A stretch of 64,000 bases of DNA, from sequence record MN850576.1. One strand, given 5' to 3'. This stretch comes from Escherichia phage ime. Positions 3,403-45,200 of the stretch are shown one piece after another (the first letter of the stretch is position 1; each line of letters starts with the position of its first letter). A program made the position numbers and the translations under genes. The notes beneath the pieces are model-generated. The model did not search any database. It was not told the DNA's origin and worked only from the letters and a program-made list of their open reading frames with translations.

Positions 3403-4728
3403 TTATTGATCAGAATTATCTTTCGTAATTAAGGTCTGGGTAAGTTTGTAATAGCGGAAGCCACCGCCACCTTGCCAGCTTGCAGACTTAGAAATACCAC
3501 CTTGATCTTCACCATCAATCACTTTTTGCAAGCGAGGGATAATATGGGTATGACAATGATCACCCAGTTCGATCAAGATCCAACGTCTTTTCATCTTGTG
3601 GGCTACAGCAGCAGTAGTTCCCGAACCGCCGAATGAATCCAATACCAAATCACCTTCTCGCGTACACATTTCGAGAATCCGCTTCAAAAGCGCTTCTGGT
3701 TTTTTTCCATTTTTGAAACTAACGCCGCCTTCATTTGCTATTCCATTCCAACTAATGTCTGTCCAAACATCAGTTATTAGTTCCGCAGGTTGCATCTCAC
3801 CGTCAATTTCCAAAAGCCTGTTGGAGTAAAAGACCATTTGCCTACCATTTGCGATATAAAATCCTTCAACATCCTCATTCGGATGTGCATAAACCTTATC
3901 CCTATCTTTCTTTGACTTCTCGATAGTTTCTTTTCTCTTTATTTTAGCGCCACCACCAATTGCAACAGATTGAAATACACGTTCTGCATTATCAATTGCG
4001 AATTGTGCTAATTCATCATCGAATGTGTCAGGCAGTTTTTTCTTAGCTTCTTTTGCATCTTTATAGCCATTGGCCTTTGCAAACGCATCGGCAATACCGC
4101 ACCACGTCCAATTTTTATAATGGTCATCCGGGTTTAATAGGTATTTGTTATATCCTGTATCATACCCTTTAGGTATATAGATTTTGTTAAGCGGTTTCTG
4201 GGTGCGATCTTTTGCATATACAAGCAAAAAGTTTGCTGTGGAGAAAACTGTGGCTCCTGTTGCCTTAAATCCCGAAGGGGAATTTGTGGTCATCGATATG
4301 GTATTTAACTGATTTGCACGACCAAAAATCTCGTCCATCAAAACTTTTAAATACGCCATTTCGCAATCATCTAAGTGAACGAATATTACCCCATCATCAC
4401 TTAGAAGATTACGAATTATTTCTAACCTATCCCTCATTAAGCCCAGCCAAATGGAATGCTCAAGGCTATCATCGTAGTGCTCAAAAGCCCTTCCAGTATT
4501 GAATGGTGGGTCTATGTAAACACATTTCACTTTGCCTGCATACTCTTGCTCTAGCGCCTTCAATGCTAATAAGTTATCTCCAAAAATCAGTTTATTATCA
4601 AAAATATCGTTTTCGGTCACTTTCTGGCTGTGGTAAGACTTGCTAGAATCTTCTAACAAAATGTGCGGCTCTAACTTTTTGCGCTCGTTTTTACCTATCC
4701 AGGTTAGTTCTAATTTGGTTTTACTCAT
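3403..4728 (-). CDS. DNA amino-methyltransferase, beta class (N6-adenine or N4-cytosine)
   Basis: Motif IV YIDPPFNTG near N-terminus and motif I DSFGGSGTT near C-terminus (IV-TRD-I order = beta class). Confidence 0.8.
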   Translation of the reverse strand: MSKTKLELTWIGKNERKKLEPHILLEDSSKSYHSQKVTENDIFDNKLIFGDNLLALKALEQEYAGKVKCVYIDPPFNTGRAFEHYDDSLEHSIWLGLMRDRLEIIRNLLSDDGVIFVHLDDCEMAYLKVLMDEIFGRANQLNTISMTTNSPSGFKATGATVFSTANFLLVYAKDRTQKPLNKIYIPKGYDTGYNKYLLNPDDHYKNWTWCGIADAFAKANGYKDAKEAKKKLPDTFDDELAQFAIDNAERVFQSVAIGGGAKIKRKETIEKSKKDRDKVYAHPNEDVEGFYIANGRQMVFYSNRLLEIDGEMQPAELITDVWTDISWNGIANEGGVSFKNGKKPEALLKRILEMCTREGDLVLDSFGGSGTTAAVAHKMKRRWILIELGDHCHTHIIPRLQKVIDGEDQGGISKSASWQGGGGFRYYKLTQTLITKDNSDQ

Positions 4729-14395: not shown

Positions 14396-15439
14396 TTGAT
14401 GTTGACATCTGTTGAGACAATTGATACGATTTCTTCACTTACAGAGCACGAGAGACGACTCATGAATCTTGAAAAATATTATACACCAGAAGAGTTAGAG
14501 CGCTTGCTCAAAAAATATAGACGCAAACAGAATAACGCACGGAAACGAGATATAGAGTTCGACCTGTCATGGGAAGAATACCTCCTATTTGGTAAAAAAC
14601 TTTTAGGAGATGGAGTATGCGACTATACCCTTATACCTTTTGACATGCACACAGATGAAAACGGGCTGGGGAATCCTTTCTACCCATCTCTGGAGCGGAT
14701 AGATGATGAAGGTCCTTATGCGGTTGATAACTGTTGTGTGGTGGGATTGAGATGCAACTCTCTAAAGGACTGTCTGGTAGATAAAAAGACTGCAGTCTTG
14801 ATTAAAGACGAAACTGATCGAAAAATTGTCCAGCAGATGATGCTCCACCTGAGCGAAGAGCGTATGGAGAAATTGAAAGGTGATTATACTTTTGAAGATT
14901 TCATCTTGCAATATGGAACGGAAGAGGATAAACTAGCACTCTTTGACGAAGAAGAGGAGGAAGATATGCTACCGATGTCTAAAGTTACTTATCGTGCACC
15001 CAAGAAGCACATTTCCGACATTGTAAACGAGCCTATCACAGAAGAGATTGAAGAAATGACGCAACAGGTGCATGAAGAGGAAAAAGAGACTCAGGAGGTC
15101 GAAGAGGAGCTTACAGAAGAGGTTCCTGCACTACCTGATGATGTTGAGATTGCCAAAGCTTACACTTTCTATTGTCAAACGTTCTACGATGTAGGTATGA
15201 AAGTTGATCTGTCGTTCAGCCAATTTAAGAGTTCGTATATTCGCAAATGCTGTGCTTTAACTGGTGAACGTCTTGGAGCTGGACTTAAACCCCTGTTGGT
15301 GACCGACTGGAATAAAGGTTTCACTAAAGGAAACTTTATGGTAGTATCTCCAATTATGGAGAAAGCTATGACAGATCTTATGAAGACCACCCGCATGACA
15401 ATGACCGAGTTGGCAGGTATTTTCAAACACGTTAAATAA
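14396..15439 (+). CDS. Composite ORF: HNH-like N-terminal region, acidic linker, C-terminal domain with internal SD+ATG
   Basis: MHTDENGLGN...SLERIDDEGPYAVDNCCVV resembles an HNH (His-Me finger) motif; EEEEED linker; in-frame internal ATG at 14975 preceded by GAGGAGG. Called ATG 14396 overlaps a TTGACA hexamer, so the true start is uncertain (alternative ATG 14462). Confidence 0.45.
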   Translation: MMLTSVETIDTISSLTEHERRLMNLEKYYTPEELERLLKKYRRKQNNARKRDIEFDLSWEEYLLFGKKLLGDGVCDYTLIPFDMHTDENGLGNPFYPSLERIDDEGPYAVDNCCVVGLRCNSLKDCLVDKKTAVLIKDETDRKIVQQMMLHLSEERMEKLKGDYTFEDFILQYGTEEDKLALFDEEEEEDMLPMSKVTYRAPKKHISDIVNEPITEEIEEMTQQVHEEEKETQEVEEELTEEVPALPDDVEIAKAYTFYCQTFYDVGMKVDLSFSQFKSSYIRKCCALTGERLGAGLKPLLVTDWNKGFTKGNFMVVSPIMEKAMTDLMKTTRMTMTELAGIFKHVK

Positions 15440-15451
15440 TGACAGGGGCCA

Positions 15452-16933
15452 ATGGCCCCTTCTGGAGTTTTAATGGATAGTAGAAGTTCAGAAATCATTG
15501 CCTCGCAGAAAGATGATGCCCTGAGAATGTTGCAGGCTGCACGTATGTATCTCCTTGAAAAGCTGCCGTTTTATGGCACACTACTGTCAGGGTTGCAGTT
15601 CGTAGAAAACCACACATGGTGCTCCACCATGGCAACCGACCATAAACGCATCTATTACAGTCCTGAGTTCATTATGGGATTGGCTGATGAACGCAAGGCT
15701 ATTCTTAAGGCTTCTCTAACTGACGAGCAGTTTGAGATGGCTGAAGTTTTCTATTCCCCAAAATCTGTGAAAGAGGTGGCCTTCCTTCTGTCACATGAGG
15801 TGGGGCATATTATCTGTGATCACCTAGTCCGTGGTAAAAGCTTTGAGCCGGAACTGTTCAATATTGCTTGTGATCACGTTATCAACACAGGCCTTGTGGT
15901 TGACTTTAGCAAACCTCCTTGTGTTTTCTTCCCGAAGGGGAAAAGCACTACGTTCATGAAAGGTAAGCCTTTTGGCTTCTTAGCCAGCTGCTACTGCGAC
16001 ATGAAGTTTCATGGATGGATTGCTGAGAACGTTTATGCAGTTCTTGATAAGCAAAGAGATCAGAATAACGGTAAAAGTAAGAACGGTAAAGGTGAGAACT
16101 CTCAAAGTGATAAGCGACAAACCGATGATCACATGAGTGGGAACGGTGGCACCAGTGATAATCTTGGAAAGGCTATGAGGTATGATCAGCCACAACCTGT
16201 AATCAGCCAATCTGATAAAGATCAGGCCATGCAGGACTCTGGTGATATGCTGGAGGCAGCAATGCAAGCGTCCGGAGGCCGTTGCCCTGAGGCGGTGCGT
16301 GAGTTTGTCAAGAACAGAGGTAAGCCTGTAATCAACTATATAGACATCATTAAGCAACGTATGTTGTCTAAAAGAAAGGCCGAACTGACCTACAGAAAAC
16401 CTGGTCGCCGATCTGGGTCTTTGACCAGCACAATGCGAAAAGTTGGGGCTATAAACAAGAACCAGCACGTTATTGTTCCTGGTCGTAATCCGGAAAACAC
16501 TATAGATATTGTGGTGGCTTTAGACGTTTCTGGCTCGATCTCTCAAAGAACTTTAAAGAAAATGTTCAATGAAATCACCGGATTGTGCAATCTGTATAAA
16601 GAGTTTAAGGTTACAATGTTCTGTTGGTCAACTGAGGTTGGAGAGGTTAAAGTATACACTCGCGGCAACATAGACGAGATGGTCAACTATGAGGTCCACT
16701 CAACATGGGGCACAACAGCTGCTTGCGTGTTCGAGTATCTGGATGCCAACATACCTAATGCAAAAGATGTCATCGTCCTGACCGACCTATACTTTGAGCA
16801 TAACTTTGAACAAAAGGTTGTTGACAACAAGTGGAAAAAGTACGATACTCTATGGGTCCTCACTGAGGGGTATAATAAAAATTATATCCCGAGCTTTGGG
16901 AAAACTGTGGAATTAATCGAGTACGCTAAGTAA
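15452..16933 (+). CDS. vWA-domain protein with N-terminal HExxH metallopeptidase-like region
   Basis: HExxH motif LSHEVGHIICDH; MIDAS motif VVALDVSGSIS (DxSxS); 493 aa. Confidence 0.7.
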   Translation: MAPSGVLMDSRSSEIIASQKDDALRMLQAARMYLLEKLPFYGTLLSGLQFVENHTWCSTMATDHKRIYYSPEFIMGLADERKAILKASLTDEQFEMAEVFYSPKSVKEVAFLLSHEVGHIICDHLVRGKSFEPELFNIACDHVINTGLVVDFSKPPCVFFPKGKSTTFMKGKPFGFLASCYCDMKFHGWIAENVYAVLDKQRDQNNGKSKNGKGENSQSDKRQTDDHMSGNGGTSDNLGKAMRYDQPQPVISQSDKDQAMQDSGDMLEAAMQASGGRCPEAVREFVKNRGKPVINYIDIIKQRMLSKRKAELTYRKPGRRSGSLTSTMRKVGAINKNQHVIVPGRNPENTIDIVVALDVSGSISQRTLKKMFNEITGLCNLYKEFKVTMFCWSTEVGEVKVYTRGNIDEMVNYEVHSTWGTTAACVFEYLDANIPNAKDVIVLTDLYFEHNFEQKVVDNKWKKYDTLWVLTEGYNKNYIPSFGKTVELIEYAK

Positions 16934-16948
16934 GAGAGGAGGTTATTT

Positions 16949-17212
16949 ATGGCAACAGAGTTAAAATTTGCATCAAACCGTAAAACTAAGAAGTATCTGT
17001 CCTCAGTAGCTCCAGGCACTGTGGTGATGTTTGTTGATGAACTTGGGGATGTGAATACAGCACTTGTTGTAAAATCACATCCTGCAAACATATATGTTGG
17101 GGTATTTGACCTGTTCAGAAAGGTGTTTGTAGAACTGCCTCACAGTTTGGTTGTTACAGAAATGGATGCCTGCATAGAAATTCTTGGCGAAGTTATGGTG
17201 GAGGAACAATAA
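16949..17212 (+). CDS. Small paralog family protein, copy 1 (87 aa)
   Basis: Strong SD GAGAGGAGG; shares MAT...GTVV...VVK...FDL...LP...VTE-D...ILGE pattern with copies 2-4. Confidence 0.65.
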   Translation: MATELKFASNRKTKKYLSSVAPGTVVMFVDELGDVNTALVVKSHPANIYVGVFDLFRKVFVELPHSLVVTEMDACIEILGEVMVEEQ

Positions 17213-17475
17213 TGGCTACCAGCATTGTATTCAATTCTAAGGTGAAGAACAAAAAGCGTGCAGACAGTTTTCCGTGTGGGACCGTGGTAAGTTGCGACGG
17301 AGACGGCATTCAAAACATAGTTATGATTGTCAAAACAGGAGAACATTGTGTGTGGGGGTTCGATTTAGAAAATAATGAGTTGTACGATCTGCCGCCAAAC
17401 ATGAAAGTTACAGAGCTTGACACCAAAATTACCATCCTTGGAGAGACAAGCTATTCAAAAGAAGGAGGAGAATAA
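17212..17475 (+). CDS. Small paralog family protein, copy 2 (87 aa)
   Basis: Start overlaps copy-1 stop (TAATG); SD GGAGGA; clear alignment with copy 1. Confidence 0.65.
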   Translation: MATSIVFNSKVKNKKRADSFPCGTVVSCDGDGIQNIVMIVKTGEHCVWGFDLENNELYDLPPNMKVTELDTKITILGETSYSKEGGE

Positions 17476-17738
17476 TGACCACAAAAATCACTATCGCAGA
17501 ACCGAAAGCTAACACTCAGCCTATCGAAAAGTTTAAGTGCGGTGAGGTGGTAACATTCACACCAGATAATGAAGATGCTAAGATTTTCGCAATGGTCACA
17601 GCTGAGTGGATGTGTGACAACACCACACAGGTTCTGCGTTTTGACACCTATCTTACCGATGAAATCAGGAACGACAAGATTGTGACTGGTGTGGATACTG
17701 AGATTGTTTTCTACAAGAGCTTTTTAGAGGGTTTCTGA
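17475..17738 (+). CDS. Small paralog family protein, copy 3 (87 aa)
   Basis: Start overlaps copy-2 stop (TAATG); SD AAGGAGGAG; diverged but same pattern (CGEVV, DTEIV). Confidence 0.6.
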   Translation: MTTKITIAEPKANTQPIEKFKCGEVVTFTPDNEDAKIFAMVTAEWMCDNTTQVLRFDTYLTDEIRNDKIVTGVDTEIVFYKSFLEGF

Positions 17739-17739
17739 T

Positions 17740-17973
17740 ATGGCAAAAATTAGAAAATTATCTAGCAATCAGGTTGTGAAAGACTTCGAATCTGGAGAGA
17801 TTCTTTATGTTCGTGATGCAGATGACGAAGGTGAAGATCTCGTTATGTTGGTGGGGCACGCTGAGGACGGATGCATCCAAGCTGTTTTTCTTGAAACAGC
17901 TATGGTGCACTGGATAGAGCTGGACCTGAAAGCACGAAAACCTAAAGCAGAAATCCTGATTTACGAAGATTAA
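17740..17973 (+). CDS. Small paralog family protein, copy 4 (77 aa)
   Basis: Directly follows copy 3; weaker similarity (SGEILYV, VMLVGH). Confidence 0.5.
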   Translation: MAKIRKLSSNQVVKDFESGEILYVRDADDEGEDLVMLVGHAEDGCIQAVFLETAMVHWIELDLKARKPKAEILIYED

Positions 17974-17989
17974 CAAAAAGGAGATAGCC

Positions 17990-18439
17990 GTGTTGAGCAA
18001 ACGTGAATGCGACAGCATTAGCCTGAATTCTTATAAGAAACAATGGTTTGGGGTGGAAGTTTGCCGACTGCGGCTAGGCTCCTACCTGAACTTCGTTTAT
18101 TATGAGAGTGACAGTCGTATCGTTTCTTATGAAGTGTTCTACACTAAGAACACATTCGAACTGCGCCGTAAAGTAGATGGCGGGAGAACTACCACCCAGA
18201 ATAATTGGGAAACTATTCTGCCTCCAGATGTTATAGGAAGTCCCCTGAATGTATCTGAAGATGAAAATCTTATGGTTCATGCTATGATGGGACTTGACAG
18301 CTTAGAGCTGGCAATCTATGATATGTCCATCGAAGCAGTTAAGCTGGACTACATCGAAAACACTTTAGAGGAAGGTATCAAGAAGTTTCTCAGTGAGAAA
18401 TTAAAAGACCACTTTCATAAGGAGCTATATCTGTTATGA
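17990..18439 (+). CDS. Hypothetical protein
   Basis: 149-aa ORF, GTG start after AAGGAG. Confidence 0.5.
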   Translation: MLSKRECDSISLNSYKKQWFGVEVCRLRLGSYLNFVYYESDSRIVSYEVFYTKNTFELRRKVDGGRTTTQNNWETILPPDVIGSPLNVSEDENLMVHAMMGLDSLELAIYDMSIEAVKLDYIENTLEEGIKKFLSEKLKDHFHKELYLL

Positions 18440-18681
18440 AGACCCGTAAAGAACGTAACAAAATTTTACCTGGAGCTCTCGAACACCTGATGAAGTGCAG
18501 ATCTATTTGGCACTCTGCCAAGGAAGGGCAGAAGGTGGTTGTGGTTAGTGACAATACCAACCCGTTTGGAGATTATACCACCATGATGGCTCCATATGTC
18601 CGTGATGGCGTTGTAGAAGTGGTCCCTTACAACGGTTTGCATGAACGGCACTTTGAAAGCACTTTGCTAGTGGAGCTATAG
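18436..18681 (+). CDS. Hypothetical protein
   Basis: 81-aa ORF, coupled start/stop. Confidence 0.45.
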   Translation: MKTRKERNKILPGALEHLMKCRSIWHSAKEGQKVVVVSDNTNPFGDYTTMMAPYVRDGVVEVVPYNGLHERHFESTLLVEL

Positions 18682-21430: not shown

Positions 21431-21442
21431 CTATAAAAAGAA

Positions 21443-21468
21443 AGGGGCCGTTTGGCCCCTTTTTATTT
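21443..21468. terminator. Bidirectional rho-independent terminator at the convergence of plus and minus blocks
   Basis: AGGGGCC-GTTT-GGCCCCT followed by TTTTTATTT on plus and preceded by AAAAAGAAA (U-rich on minus). Confidence 0.75.
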
Positions 21469-42269: not shown

Positions 42270-45200
42270 TATTCAACACTCTCCATCATAAGCTGGGTGT
42301 CTGTCAGTGCAGAGTTCCAAACTCTTATGTCCTTAATATGACCAAATAAGTGTCTTTCACCTGTCGCCGTTTGACCACCAATGCGGATGAAAGCACCTCC
42401 TGCCAGGAATTCCCAAGAAGACTGCGTTTCTGAGCTCACCAGTCCGTTAGCAAAAGAGCAGGTTTTACCGTCATCTTTTATCCTGAACCCAACTTTCAAT
42501 TTACGAACTTTAGCCATCTCGTAAACACGTCTGTTTGACCCTCCAATATCACAGTATGGATAACCATCATCCGCAATATTTGTTGCAGAGCCAAATCCCA
42601 TGATAAATGCAGCACCGGATTGATGACCCTCTGTATCGATAACCCTAGGAGCTGCGTTAGGAGCTTTACCCCAACCTCTCCAGTTGGCATCCACCGTAGC
42701 AGCGATAGTGAATGGTCTAGGCGCTAAGTTATCCGTCATTGGGAATTTACAAAGATCTGCCGCCCTGGTTACAGGTGAAGATCCTGTAGGGATAAACGAG
42801 GACTCACAAGATCCTAACTCAAACTGAGGTATTGCAACGTCAACCCAATCCCCTACGGCATGTTGAGAACTCTCCGGCGGGGCAATCTGAAACTGGCACC
42901 CGATCTTTCTGTCAGAGGCCACTGCCTCAAACGTAGCAACAACCCTTGTCCAAGCAGGTCCGGCTGTTTGCCATCTCTCAGCTTTTACTTTAATTCTCCC
43001 CGCTGCACCCCCTGTTGTTTTCACTTCAAGTGTTGACAGGTTAACATAAGCATCACCTTGATATGTTGTGGTGGATCCGTCGTACATGTCGAATCTTATA
43101 CGCAGTCTCTGGTGAGCTTTACCGCCTCTTGCAATGATAGACCCAGTACAGAATTTCTCATCACCTGTTACATCGGCACCTCTGGTGGCTGGAACTACAG
43201 CCAAGTTTAACGCCGTTGTTTCTACACCGGACGTGGTGTTTACTGTAAATCTTGCACCTTTTGTGCCGTTGGTGTTTGTTACAGTGCTACCGACAGTAAT
43301 CGCCTGCTGTGCACCCCATTTACTCGGGTCTTCACTGTTAAGCATTAGGTTTGTCCTTTGCCCTTCAATAAGCAGACCATCTCTTTCAAACCGAGGCTGA
43401 TCGTTCTGAGCAGTAACCATCACACCGCGTTTAGAAAAGTATGTTGCTGTAGAAGGTCTGGAAAATACCATCTCTCCCTCACCAAGTGCAGGTTTTAAGT
43501 TGGAGGTCAAAGGTAACCAAAGATCAGGCATAACTGGGGCTGTTGTGCTTTCAGGGAAGCTTGTCCTCTTCCAAGGACTCCAAGCCATTCCACTACCAGT
43601 GTTATTATAATACCTTTCCCATGTTCCACCAAGGTACATCTTATAGATCTGAATACAGCCCGTGCCTTCGTTAGCAGAGTTTCTAAGAACAATCAGCGTA
43701 CCAGCCATCTGCTGTCCAGGCGGGTAATGTCTTTCAGCTGTAGCATTAGCATTCGCCTCTTGATGGTAGATACCTTCACGATCTGCTTTATAATCGTTAA
43801 GGTCGCTATTCCCCAGTCCTTGACCACGGTGCTGAATAACCTTGTTCCACGCTCTGTGATTTCCCTGCTCTATGGAACGAGTATACAGCTGATCTAAGCG
43901 ACCTGCTATCTGGAAAGCATAGTTCCCAGAGAATGCCACAGACAACCCGCCAACAACCATCGAACCTTCAGGTCCGTTGACGTTACCAGCCATTATTTTA
44001 GAAGGGTTGTTATTCCCGAACTGGTTGTTCCAGTCTGCACCTGTGTGGCATACAAAACCACCAGGGGCTGAGAAAGTGCCATCTTTGTTGAAGTTGTAGA
44101 ATCTGTGAGCAGAACCTACAACATCACGAACAATAACTTGACCAGCCTCTGGAGTAGATCTGAACTCTGCCTGGCCTTTGAGACCAGCACCATTACCGCA
44201 TTTAGAGGTAAACGTACCGTTAGTCAGATCCTCTGTCCCATCTGATGCACACTGGAAGCCTGCATTAGAGAATAACGCCTTTCTAGGACTGCCGTAGCAC
44301 AAATAGTCAAGACCGTCTGCCCATAACTCGACTTTTGGCATATTCATTTTGCTCATCACAGCATAGCGTTCAGCAGTACCTATATAGTGCCACTGTGTGC
44401 CGCCACCAGTGTAGAACCCTGAAGTCCCTTTGAAGTCAACAATAGGTCTGGTGTTGGTATTATTATCTCCAAGAACAGCAAGATTCAAATCTGCTGACTG
44501 GAGAGGTGCAACGAACTTAACACCGTCCTGATTGTCTGTTACAGAGCCAACCTGGTAATCTTGCTCCCTGGTAAACACCTCGACAACATTTCTACTTGCG
44601 TATATGCTGACAGGGAAAGCACGCGCCTCCGCATAGAAAGCAACATATTCTTGTTTACCCCTTGTTGGAGCAACCATCCCAAGAATTGCTTTTTCATTCT
44701 GGTAGAAATTTACTACCCCGTAGAAAGAGTCTCCTCTGTCTGTCCAACCACCAGTTCTATAGTGACACTGTAAGGTCGCACAGTTCATAGGGTCACCGCC
44801 GGATGACGATCTGGTAACTATGGTAATATCAGTGCCAGTTGCTGGAGCATAGTACGGATCTGTTCTAACGATAATTGGGTAGTATTTCCCATCTTCCATC
44901 CCTGCGGTTCTTGGCAGTGTTAAGAAGTCTTTTACACCTGCTGCTATAGGAACTTTGAACAGATTCTGAGCATCTGCTAAAGTTGTAGCCCCAGTGCCAC
45001 CTGCGGCTTGAGGTAGAGGTTCCCACTTGGCCTTCCGGTTGTTATAAACACCCCATTCCAGAGCGCCGTTACCGGATTCGTCCATCCCACCATCCCAGAT
45101 AACCATCTTGGCGGCTTTCTTGGACCCCCAGAAGCCTCTTTCTGCTCCTGAACTACGAATCCATTCTCCAAGACCCCAGTTTGTCAGCTGACCAGTAAGA

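Follow-up and report, generated by a model that had tools for sequence, protein, structure and literature searches.

What are the four small genes that stand in a row in the genome of Escherichia phage ime, and do they share an origin? The genes, here c1 to c4, occupy positions 16949-17973 on the plus strand of a 64,000-nucleotide stretch of sequence record MN850576.1, the whole of which we call the window. A preliminary description, made from the letters alone, had proposed a tandem array of four diverged paralogs with coupled translation, a family that it did not recognise, and a role of the kind played by fast-evolving host-interaction or anti-defence factors. The genes are already catalogued, as gp13-16 of phage Murica and as Bas48_0054-0051, and all of these annotations read hypothetical protein. 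Our analysis describes a real yet fairly ordinary family of small paralogs in what is probably an early phage operon. What is new is the merging of three PHROG families into one, the assignment of a predicted fold, a cassette polymorphism within the array and an extreme constraint on c3 and c4. The coordinates and lengths of the four open reading frames (ORFs) had been given correctly, and all of the motifs listed for them were found (MAT, KxKK, GTVV, FDL, LP, VTExD and ILGE; CGEVV and DTEIV in c3; SGEIL and VMLVGH in c4). The four genes are as follows (aa, amino acids; pI, isoelectric point; E, expectation value).

16949..17212, plus strand: c1, 87 aa, pI 5.0; Murica gp13 / Bas48_0054; phrog_10698 (E 7.6e-43); first gene of the variable cassette
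17212..17475, plus strand: c2, 87 aa, pI 4.9; Murica gp14 / Bas48_0053; phrog_10698; second gene of the variable cassette
17475..17738, plus strand: c3, 87 aa, pI 4.5; equals rV5 gp15, phrog_12861; strongly conserved
17740..17973, plus strand: c4, 77 aa, pI 4.6, net charge -8; equals rV5 gp16, phrog_12046; most diverged member, kept within the genus

Common origin of the four genes

Between c1 and c2 the protein identity is 38%, and none of 500 shuffles reached their Smith-Waterman z-score of 20. The scores of the other pairs are lower (z of 4.5 for c2-c3, 3.7 for c3-c4 and 3.0 for c2-c4), and the c1-c3 and c1-c4 pairs show no significance. Because the pairwise scores are weak outside c1-c2, profiles were used. 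A profile built from c1, c2 and gp14, the related protein of phage rV5, aligned with c3 in hhalign at an E of 1.1e-5 (probability 82%), collinear across 76 columns. The corresponding hidden Markov model (HMM) scored c3 at 20.4 bits, a value attained by none of 3000 composition-preserving shuffles (shuffle maximum 10.2). The same model gave c4 just 7.2 bits (11 of 3000 shuffles), and c4 alone matched the c1/c2 profile at an E of 0.033. Once c3 had been added to the model, c4 scored 17.4 bits (0 of 3000; shuffle maximum 9.4). Specificity was assessed by scoring every window ORF of 60-130 aa, 76 over the six frames. The best four were exactly c1-c4, and the fifth scored 3.2 bits with the c1/c2/gp14 model and 2.9 bits with the model that included c3. 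The four-way alignment is collinear. An F-x-x-G-[TE]-[VI]-[VL] strand is common to all copies, and further strands are a hydrophobic one (IVMIVK / LVMLVG), C-[VI]-[WQ] and a terminal I-x-[IL]. The proposed paralogy of all four genes is thus statistically supported, and the comparisons identify c1-c4 as old tandem duplicates of one family. A search for nucleotide-level repeats or recombination sites inside the array returned short chance matches only; no nucleotide similarity is left between the copies, and therefore the duplications are old.

Could the similarity be an artefact, either of composition or of ORFs that are no real genes? The c1-c3 and c1-c4 pairwise scores, non-significant by themselves, would agree with this. 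The profile scores, however, stand well above 3000 shuffles and above every other small ORF of the window, and the alignments are full-length and collinear. In addition, the ratio of nonsynonymous to synonymous substitution rates (dN/dS) is far under 1 for every copy, the genes carry strong Shine-Dalgarno (SD) sequences and they are kept in more than 100 genomes. We regard the artefact as hardly credible and effectively refuted, the compositional version, which the preliminary description had itself named as a possible refutation, being ruled out by the shuffles together with purifying selection.

Predicted fold, relatives and distribution

Sequence searches with c1-c4 of Pfam, NCBIfam and PDB (phmmer and profile) gave nothing significant. 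In Pfam and NCBIfam, neither the KOW, S1 and CSD profiles nor membership of the KOW, Tudor or CarD-TRCF families produced a match even at E<=1, and the best PDB profile match was to an uncharacterised protein (E 0.14). PHROGs returned only the families of the genes themselves, namely phrog_10698 (c1, c2 and rV5 gp14), phrog_12861 (c3) and phrog_12046 (c4), in full-length matches at E 1e-41 to 1e-62, and all three are labelled as of unknown function. PHROGs treats these as three unrelated families, whereas the profile statistics and the predicted structures place them in one. When the c1/c2/gp14 profile was run with HMMER against 1.84 billion (1.84e9) representative proteins, three genuine clusters were recovered, all of them family members. 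That the family, which the preliminary description did not recognise, lacks known relatives is borne out by Pfam, NCBIfam and PDB and by its unannotated status in PHROGs.

The sole non-phage match of this exhaustive search was a repeat protein of 533 aa (P0026) in which the unit 'LxLxxTQIKELPANLKVGG' occurs about 12 times. Its eight matches to the 'DLENNELYDLPPNMKVTELD' motif of c1/c2 have a summed E of 1.8e-6. A relationship to leucine-rich repeats through this protein was considered and rejected, the eight short matches all falling on one profile motif of about 30 residues (DLxxxELxDLPxNLKV). We judged the match to be repeat-inflated chance because c1 and c2 hold one such motif, embedded in the barrel.

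Region 16500-18500 of the window has perfect matches (100% identity) in Escherichia phages HdK5, nimi, CarlMeissner (Bas48) and Murica, and 117 records in total match it at 90-100% identity, all of them rV5-like myoviruses of the genus Vequintavirus. Searches by tblastn with c2, c3 and c4 against 50,697 phage genomes found only these same 117 vequintavirus records, and IMG/VR, scanned with the c3 alignment, added only two contigs, both of vequintaviruses. The family is nearly confined to the genus.

Sixteen of the 117 records are named Campylobacter phage (MG0656xx, for example MG065635.1 at 42512-43035; host Campylobacter jejuni). Over this locus they match rV5-like phages of E. coli at 98-100% identity, and their labels probably reflect a wrong host or contaminated preparations. 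Whole or large vequintavirus contigs also occur in several E. coli assemblies, among them a 136.8 kb contig (proteins P0006 and P0030) and a 45.8 kb contig (GCA_002973135.1; P0002, P0019 and P0032), and family members there are therefore named 'hypothetical protein [Escherichia coli]'. These contigs are probably contamination or a carrier state, not prophages.

The AlphaFold2 model of c2 (predicted local distance difference test, pLDDT, 80; predicted template modelling score, pTM, 0.67) is all-beta, with eight strands. The c4 protein was modelled from its own 88-96% identical variants alone, to avoid alignment bias, and has seven strands (pLDDT 73.6, pTM 0.60). Compared by alignment position, c4 strands 21-25, 32-42, 45-50, 55-60 and 72-76 align with c2 strands 25-30, 33-42, 47-51, 56-60 and 70-76. 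A search of BFVD with the c2 model placed c1 and gp14-type orthologues first and a c4 orthologue at rank 21, a weak match (E 1.3e-2); in the search with the c4 model, gp14-type and c1 orthologues came at ranks 12 and 24 (E 0.27 and 0.49). With c2 and c4 as the copies modelled, a fold common to c1-c4 is likely but not proven. It is predicted to be an SH3-like small beta-barrel with an N-terminal beta-hairpin; the modelled barrel is five- or six-stranded and strongly bent, and structure searches match it to Tudor, KOW and L2 domains. The family consists of soluble small proteins of about 9-10 kDa. Every copy is acidic overall, with a pI of 4.5-5.0 and a net charge of -4 to -8, and the N-terminal third of each is mildly basic (+1 to +4).

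SH3-like barrels of known proteins (Tudor, KOW, the C-domain of ribosomal L2, the N-domain of EF-P/eIF5A, and the C-terminal Tudor domain of PcrA/UvrD) have 4-19% identity to the phage proteins among the matches listed. The phage proteins differ from these domains in that they stand alone, are acidic and have the extra N-terminal hairpin. The C-terminal Tudor domain of PcrA/UvrD binds RNA polymerase, and the resemblance of c1-c4 to it is one of predicted fold. Other phages encode proteins that are alike in size (70-90 aa) and predicted fold, namely Kuravirus SU7, LAMP, 172-1, NJ01, ECBP2 and ES17, N4 (gp21), and phages of Erwinia, Proteus and Vibrio. Foldseek matched these barrels at E 9e-4 to 4e-2 with TM (template modelling) scores of 0.5-0.7, several phages giving two matches each. 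At 10-20% identity the sequences reveal no relationship, and since all of these proteins are uncharacterised they are functionally uninformative. The idea that the Kuravirus matches are kin of the RNA polymerase-binding gp79 of phiEco32 was dropped, gp79 being a four-helix protein (PMC12276001).

Exchange and constraint within the array

How does the array vary among relatives? Four genes, with c1 and c2 both present, are found in 43 of the 117 records; in the other 74 a single gene fills the slot of c1 and c2, and the array has three genes. Copy number, the comparison that had been suggested for related phages, therefore varies. The phages with c1+c2 include Bas48, HeinrichReichert and EmilHeitz, and AlexBoehm is among those of the gp14 type. 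The array of rV5 is of the three-gene kind. Its gp14 (85 aa) is about 40% identical to both c1 and c2, gp15 corresponds to c3 (99% identical) and gp16 to c4 (100% identical); c1 as such is absent from rV5-type phages. In nucleotide alignments of the window with rV5 and Pr121LW, identity is about 97% up to 16949, collapses across 16949-17475 and is 97-100% from about 17480. The collapse at gene boundaries is a cassette replacement. A fourth type is an 83-aa protein (P0025). The possibility that gp14 is a c1/c2 deletion chimera, formed by unequal crossing-over, was rejected, both gp14 and P0025 being equidistant from c1 and c2 in every segment. The c1/c2 slot thus varies by cassette replacement between old alleles of about 40% identity. 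Within types, dN/dS of c1 and c2 is 0.15-0.24, and by these values their selection is relaxed relative to that of c3 and c4, yet not positive.

The array is preceded by a Srd-like anti-sigma homolog and then a DUF2201 metallopeptidase/VWA gene, and is followed by a conserved 149-aa gene. We compared this neighbourhood with that of a divergent relative carrying the same four-gene array, represented by the E. coli assembly contig JZQG01000001 and by Logan contigs (loci L006-L008). Where two identity values are given below, the lower is from a full-length MAFFT alignment and the higher from a local alignment.

c1: aa identity 56-58%; dN/dS 0.22
c2: aa identity 64-70%; dN/dS not computable (synonymous sites saturated)
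c3: aa identity 98%; dN/dS 0.02
c4: aa identity 95%; dN/dS 0.04
Srd-like gene: aa identity 58%; dN/dS not computable
DUF2201 gene: aa identity 82%; dN/dS not computable
four downstream genes: aa identity 37-61%; dN/dS not computable

The genes c3 and c4 are the most conserved of the neighbourhood, the flanking genes being 37-82% identical in the same comparison. Fast evolution, as the preliminary description had it, holds for the c1/c2 slot, through the cassette swap; it does not hold for c3 and c4, with dN/dS of 0.02 and 0.04. The c3 genes of the window and of phage Aya have a DNA identity of 80.7% (52% at third codon positions), yet their proteins are 93% identical. Such conservation of the protein at this third-position identity means that purifying selection is very strong, and rules out recent transfer as its cause. 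At least two deeply diverged nucleotide alleles of c3 exist (about 81% DNA identity, 52% at third positions), as seen between the window and Aya (locus L005, 3264-3527) and at 2736-2999 of locus L015. Since these alleles lie between flanking genes that are 90-95% identical, single genes of the array are exchanged as modules.

A homolog of c3 of 92 aa (P0036; 78% identity in a full-length alignment, 81% in an 83-residue BLASTP match) occurs alone, without c1, c2 or c4, in metagenomic phage contigs (L012-L014, at 4001-4279). It lies there two bases upstream of a Srd-like gene that is 37-39% identical to that of the window, and a DUF2201 gene (46-48% identical) follows about 2 kb downstream of it; identity of the neighbouring genes overall is 37-55%, far below that of c3. 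Of the family, c3 is thus the most widespread and most constrained member, and its link to the Srd-like gene is found again where the gene order differs.

Operon setting and candidate functions

The array lies on the plus strand within genes 11-26 of rV5, which the rV5 paper proposes as a transcription unit. The signals around and between the genes are the following.

14402..14430, plus strand: predicted sigma70-type promoter, TTGACA-17-TACGAT with TG (consensus scan)
16930..16948, plus strand: SD region of c1, GAGAGGAGG (anti-SD duplex energy)
about 17198-17203, plus strand: SD of c2, GGAGGA, within the 3' end of c1
17210..17214, plus strand: TAATG stop/start overlap of c1 and c2 (read from sequence)
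about 17462-17468, plus strand: SD of c3, AGGAGGA, within the 3' end of c2
17473-17477, plus strand: TAATG stop/start overlap of c2 and c3 (read from sequence)
about 17727-17731, plus strand: SD of c4, GAGGG (anti-SD duplex energy)
17736-17742, plus strand: TGAtATG at the c3/c4 junction, with 1 base between the genes (read from sequence)
21441..21462, unstranded: GC-rich palindromic hairpin, AAAGGGGCC-AAAC-GGCCCCTTT, closing the plus-strand operon ahead of the convergent tail-fibre gene (scan)

The promoter corresponds by position to the annotated P11 of rV5, upstream of the Srd-like gene, and the scan found no terminator-like sites within the array. Both TAATG overlaps are real and lie inside the intervals first given for them (17208-17214 and 17471-17477). 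The anti-SD pairing energies are -12.7, -9.3, -11.7 and -6.3 kcal/mol for c1 to c4, as against -3.0 and -5.7 kcal/mol for the two genes upstream of the array, so that the strong SD proposed for each copy is found for c1-c3 and a moderate one for c4. The lack of internal terminators, the strong SDs and the stop/start overlaps make it probable that the genes are co-transcribed and, as had been suggested, translationally coupled. An early region, also suggested before, is plausible because the unit begins with a sigma70-type promoter and the Srd-like anti-sigma gene.

Within the genus the array always adjoins the DUF2201 gene. In Av-05, 4MG and CB7, which belong to other genera of the Vequintavirinae, a larger gene comes straight after the DUF2201 gene, with no small paralogs between; the array is therefore a genus-level insertion. 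The larger gene of Av-05 and 4MG resembles the 149-aa gene of the window by inspection. Av-05 and 4MG also have 87-aa genes (FKVGDRV...VWGARL) that separate the Srd-like gene from the DUF2201 gene; these were considered as distant relatives and discarded, their HMM scores being at the level of shuffles (Av05_176, 6.5-9 bits, 8 of 2000 shuffles, non-significant after multiple testing). The text of the rV5 virion proteomics does not name gp14-16 among virion proteins, and a search of the supplement text for their labels was also empty. A literature search for transcriptomics, functional screens, rV5 gp14-16 and Bas48_0051-54 gave nothing relevant.

What might such proteins do? The reading we favour, tentatively and with slightly more doubt than belief, is an old, genus-restricted family of acidic barrels that serve as early, protein-binding factors of host takeover, by a mechanism that we infer. 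In this view, transcription by host RNA polymerase would yield the proteins in abundance at an early stage of infection, and they would serve host takeover as small protein-binding modules. The c3 and c4 proteins would engage invariant partners, of the host or of the phage, and the cassette members would engage, or escape recognition by, a partner that differs between hosts. Protein binding is preferred over nucleic-acid binding because all copies are acidic. The transcription machinery would be the first candidate target because of the predicted Tudor/KOW-like fold and the repeated linkage of c3 with a Srd-like gene; it is a lead, not a result. The host-takeover modules of lytic phages, such as the terminal-redundancy module of SPO1 and the early genes of T4 and T7, are clusters of small genes served by host RNA polymerase, with strong promoters and ribosome-binding sites, and include anti-sigma and RNA polymerase-directed factors. 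The c1-c4 operon, headed by the Srd-like gene, is like them by analogy only (bioRxiv 10.1101/569657); no homology connects them, and for c1-c4 the timing of expression is a presumed one.

Several points weigh against this reading. The plausible early expression is read from a consensus promoter and gene order. The alignment behind the c2 model comprised 10 sequences, c3 and c4 among them, the confidence of the c4 model is moderate only, and its BFVD matches to the family are individually non-significant. A partner inside the phage itself would accord with such strong conservation of c3 and c4 as well as a host partner would. It is distinctly improbable that c3, and perhaps c4, docks its Tudor/KOW-like barrel on an invariant host machine, RNA polymerase being the first candidate, together with the Srd-like protein, while the c1+c2/gp14 cassette, of the same fold, serves as a polymorphic module for specificity or immune evasion. 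If this were true, the genes would represent a new family of phage-encoded factors, acting in transcription or host takeover and having a variable member built in. Should c3 or c4 turn out to bind a core machine of the host, they would be a new inhibitor or adaptor among small proteins; otherwise the family is a routine genus-specific one.

Three other explanations bear on the same observations. An anti-defence role, in which some or all copies would inhibit or decoy bacterial immune systems and the cassette polymorphism would record an arms race with host defences, is unlikely but not far-fetched. The proteins are small and acidic, their operon is probably early, the family is restricted to the genus, and presence/absence and allelic polymorphism concentrate at one slot among near-identical genomes. 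Such a role, first raised in the preliminary description, is unsupported by homology, as no similarity to a known family was found in Pfam, NCBIfam, PDB and PHROGs, which include no dedicated anti-defence library. The extreme conservation of c3 and c4 is unlike that of typical accessory anti-defence genes, and the within-type dN/dS of the cassette genes (0.15-0.24) is below 1. The BASEL study found vequintaviruses to be exceptionally sensitive to restriction-modification, without effective protection (PMC8594841), which speaks against an anti-restriction role and renders it unlikely, and KpAvs2 stops both cassette types, Bas48 and Bas49 (PMC11564622).

Improbable, too, is the assembly of the paralogs into one hetero-oligomeric complex with a phage-internal function, for example with the Srd-like or the DUF2201/VWA protein, where translational coupling would set the stoichiometry. 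This proposal likens c1-c4 to other small-barrel proteins that form rings or stacks. The overlapping stops and starts, the gene order kept across three- and four-gene arrays, the strong co-conservation of c3 and c4 and the constant position beside the DUF2201 gene within the genus are in its favour. It is weakened by the solitary c3 homolog of the metagenomic contigs and by a subunit number that varies between three and four; moreover, TAATG overlaps are common in phage operons and unspecific to complexes. That the proteins are nucleic-acid-binding small barrels, in the style of Sso7d, KOW, Sm or cold-shock proteins, and cover or reshape the DNA or RNA of phage or host, we consider highly unlikely. 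The fold class does hold many RNA- and DNA-binding domains (L2, KOW, EF-P, PWWP), and the N-terminal third is basic in each copy. However, net charges of -4 to -8 and a pI of 4.5-5.0 are unlike the basic binders of the Sso7d/Cren7 type, and the KOW, S1 and CSD profiles were unmatched.

Among E. coli phages the rV5-like ones are isolated particularly often, and they serve in typing, biocontrol and therapy cocktails; even so, the genes in their presumed early operons are for the most part uncharacterised. Being essentially invariant, c3 and c4 are good candidates for a conserved, probably important interaction. The exchange of c1+c2 for gp14 is a natural cassette swap between otherwise about 97% identical genomes, and as such a ready-made test of host-specific effects.

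Some observations concern the neighbouring genes. The DUF2201 gene (15452-16933) is an intact ORF of 493 aa here, and in rV5 (NC_011041, 7756-9217) it is split into the overlapping gp012 and gp013. Its labels are inconsistent across records ('HNH endonuclease', 'anti-sigma factor', 'metallopeptidase'). Immediately before it, Certrevirus CB7 has a gene for a MoxR ATPase, of a kind that was not seen here. The conserved 81-aa gene at 18436-18681 belongs to phrog_4868 and has a weak Lar_N-like Pfam match (E 0.0014, below threshold); its homologue in the divergent relatives (L006-L008) is present as an ORF that has not been called as a gene. This gene was considered as a fifth copy (z of 2.7 against c4, barrel-like by eye) and rejected, as it scores at background against both profiles. 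The 149-aa gene (17990-18439) matches phrog_6790, labelled 'tail protein', and this label has been propagated to RefSeq. It looks doubtful, given the presumed early operon and the lookalikes that follow the DUF2201 gene in Av-05 and 4MG.

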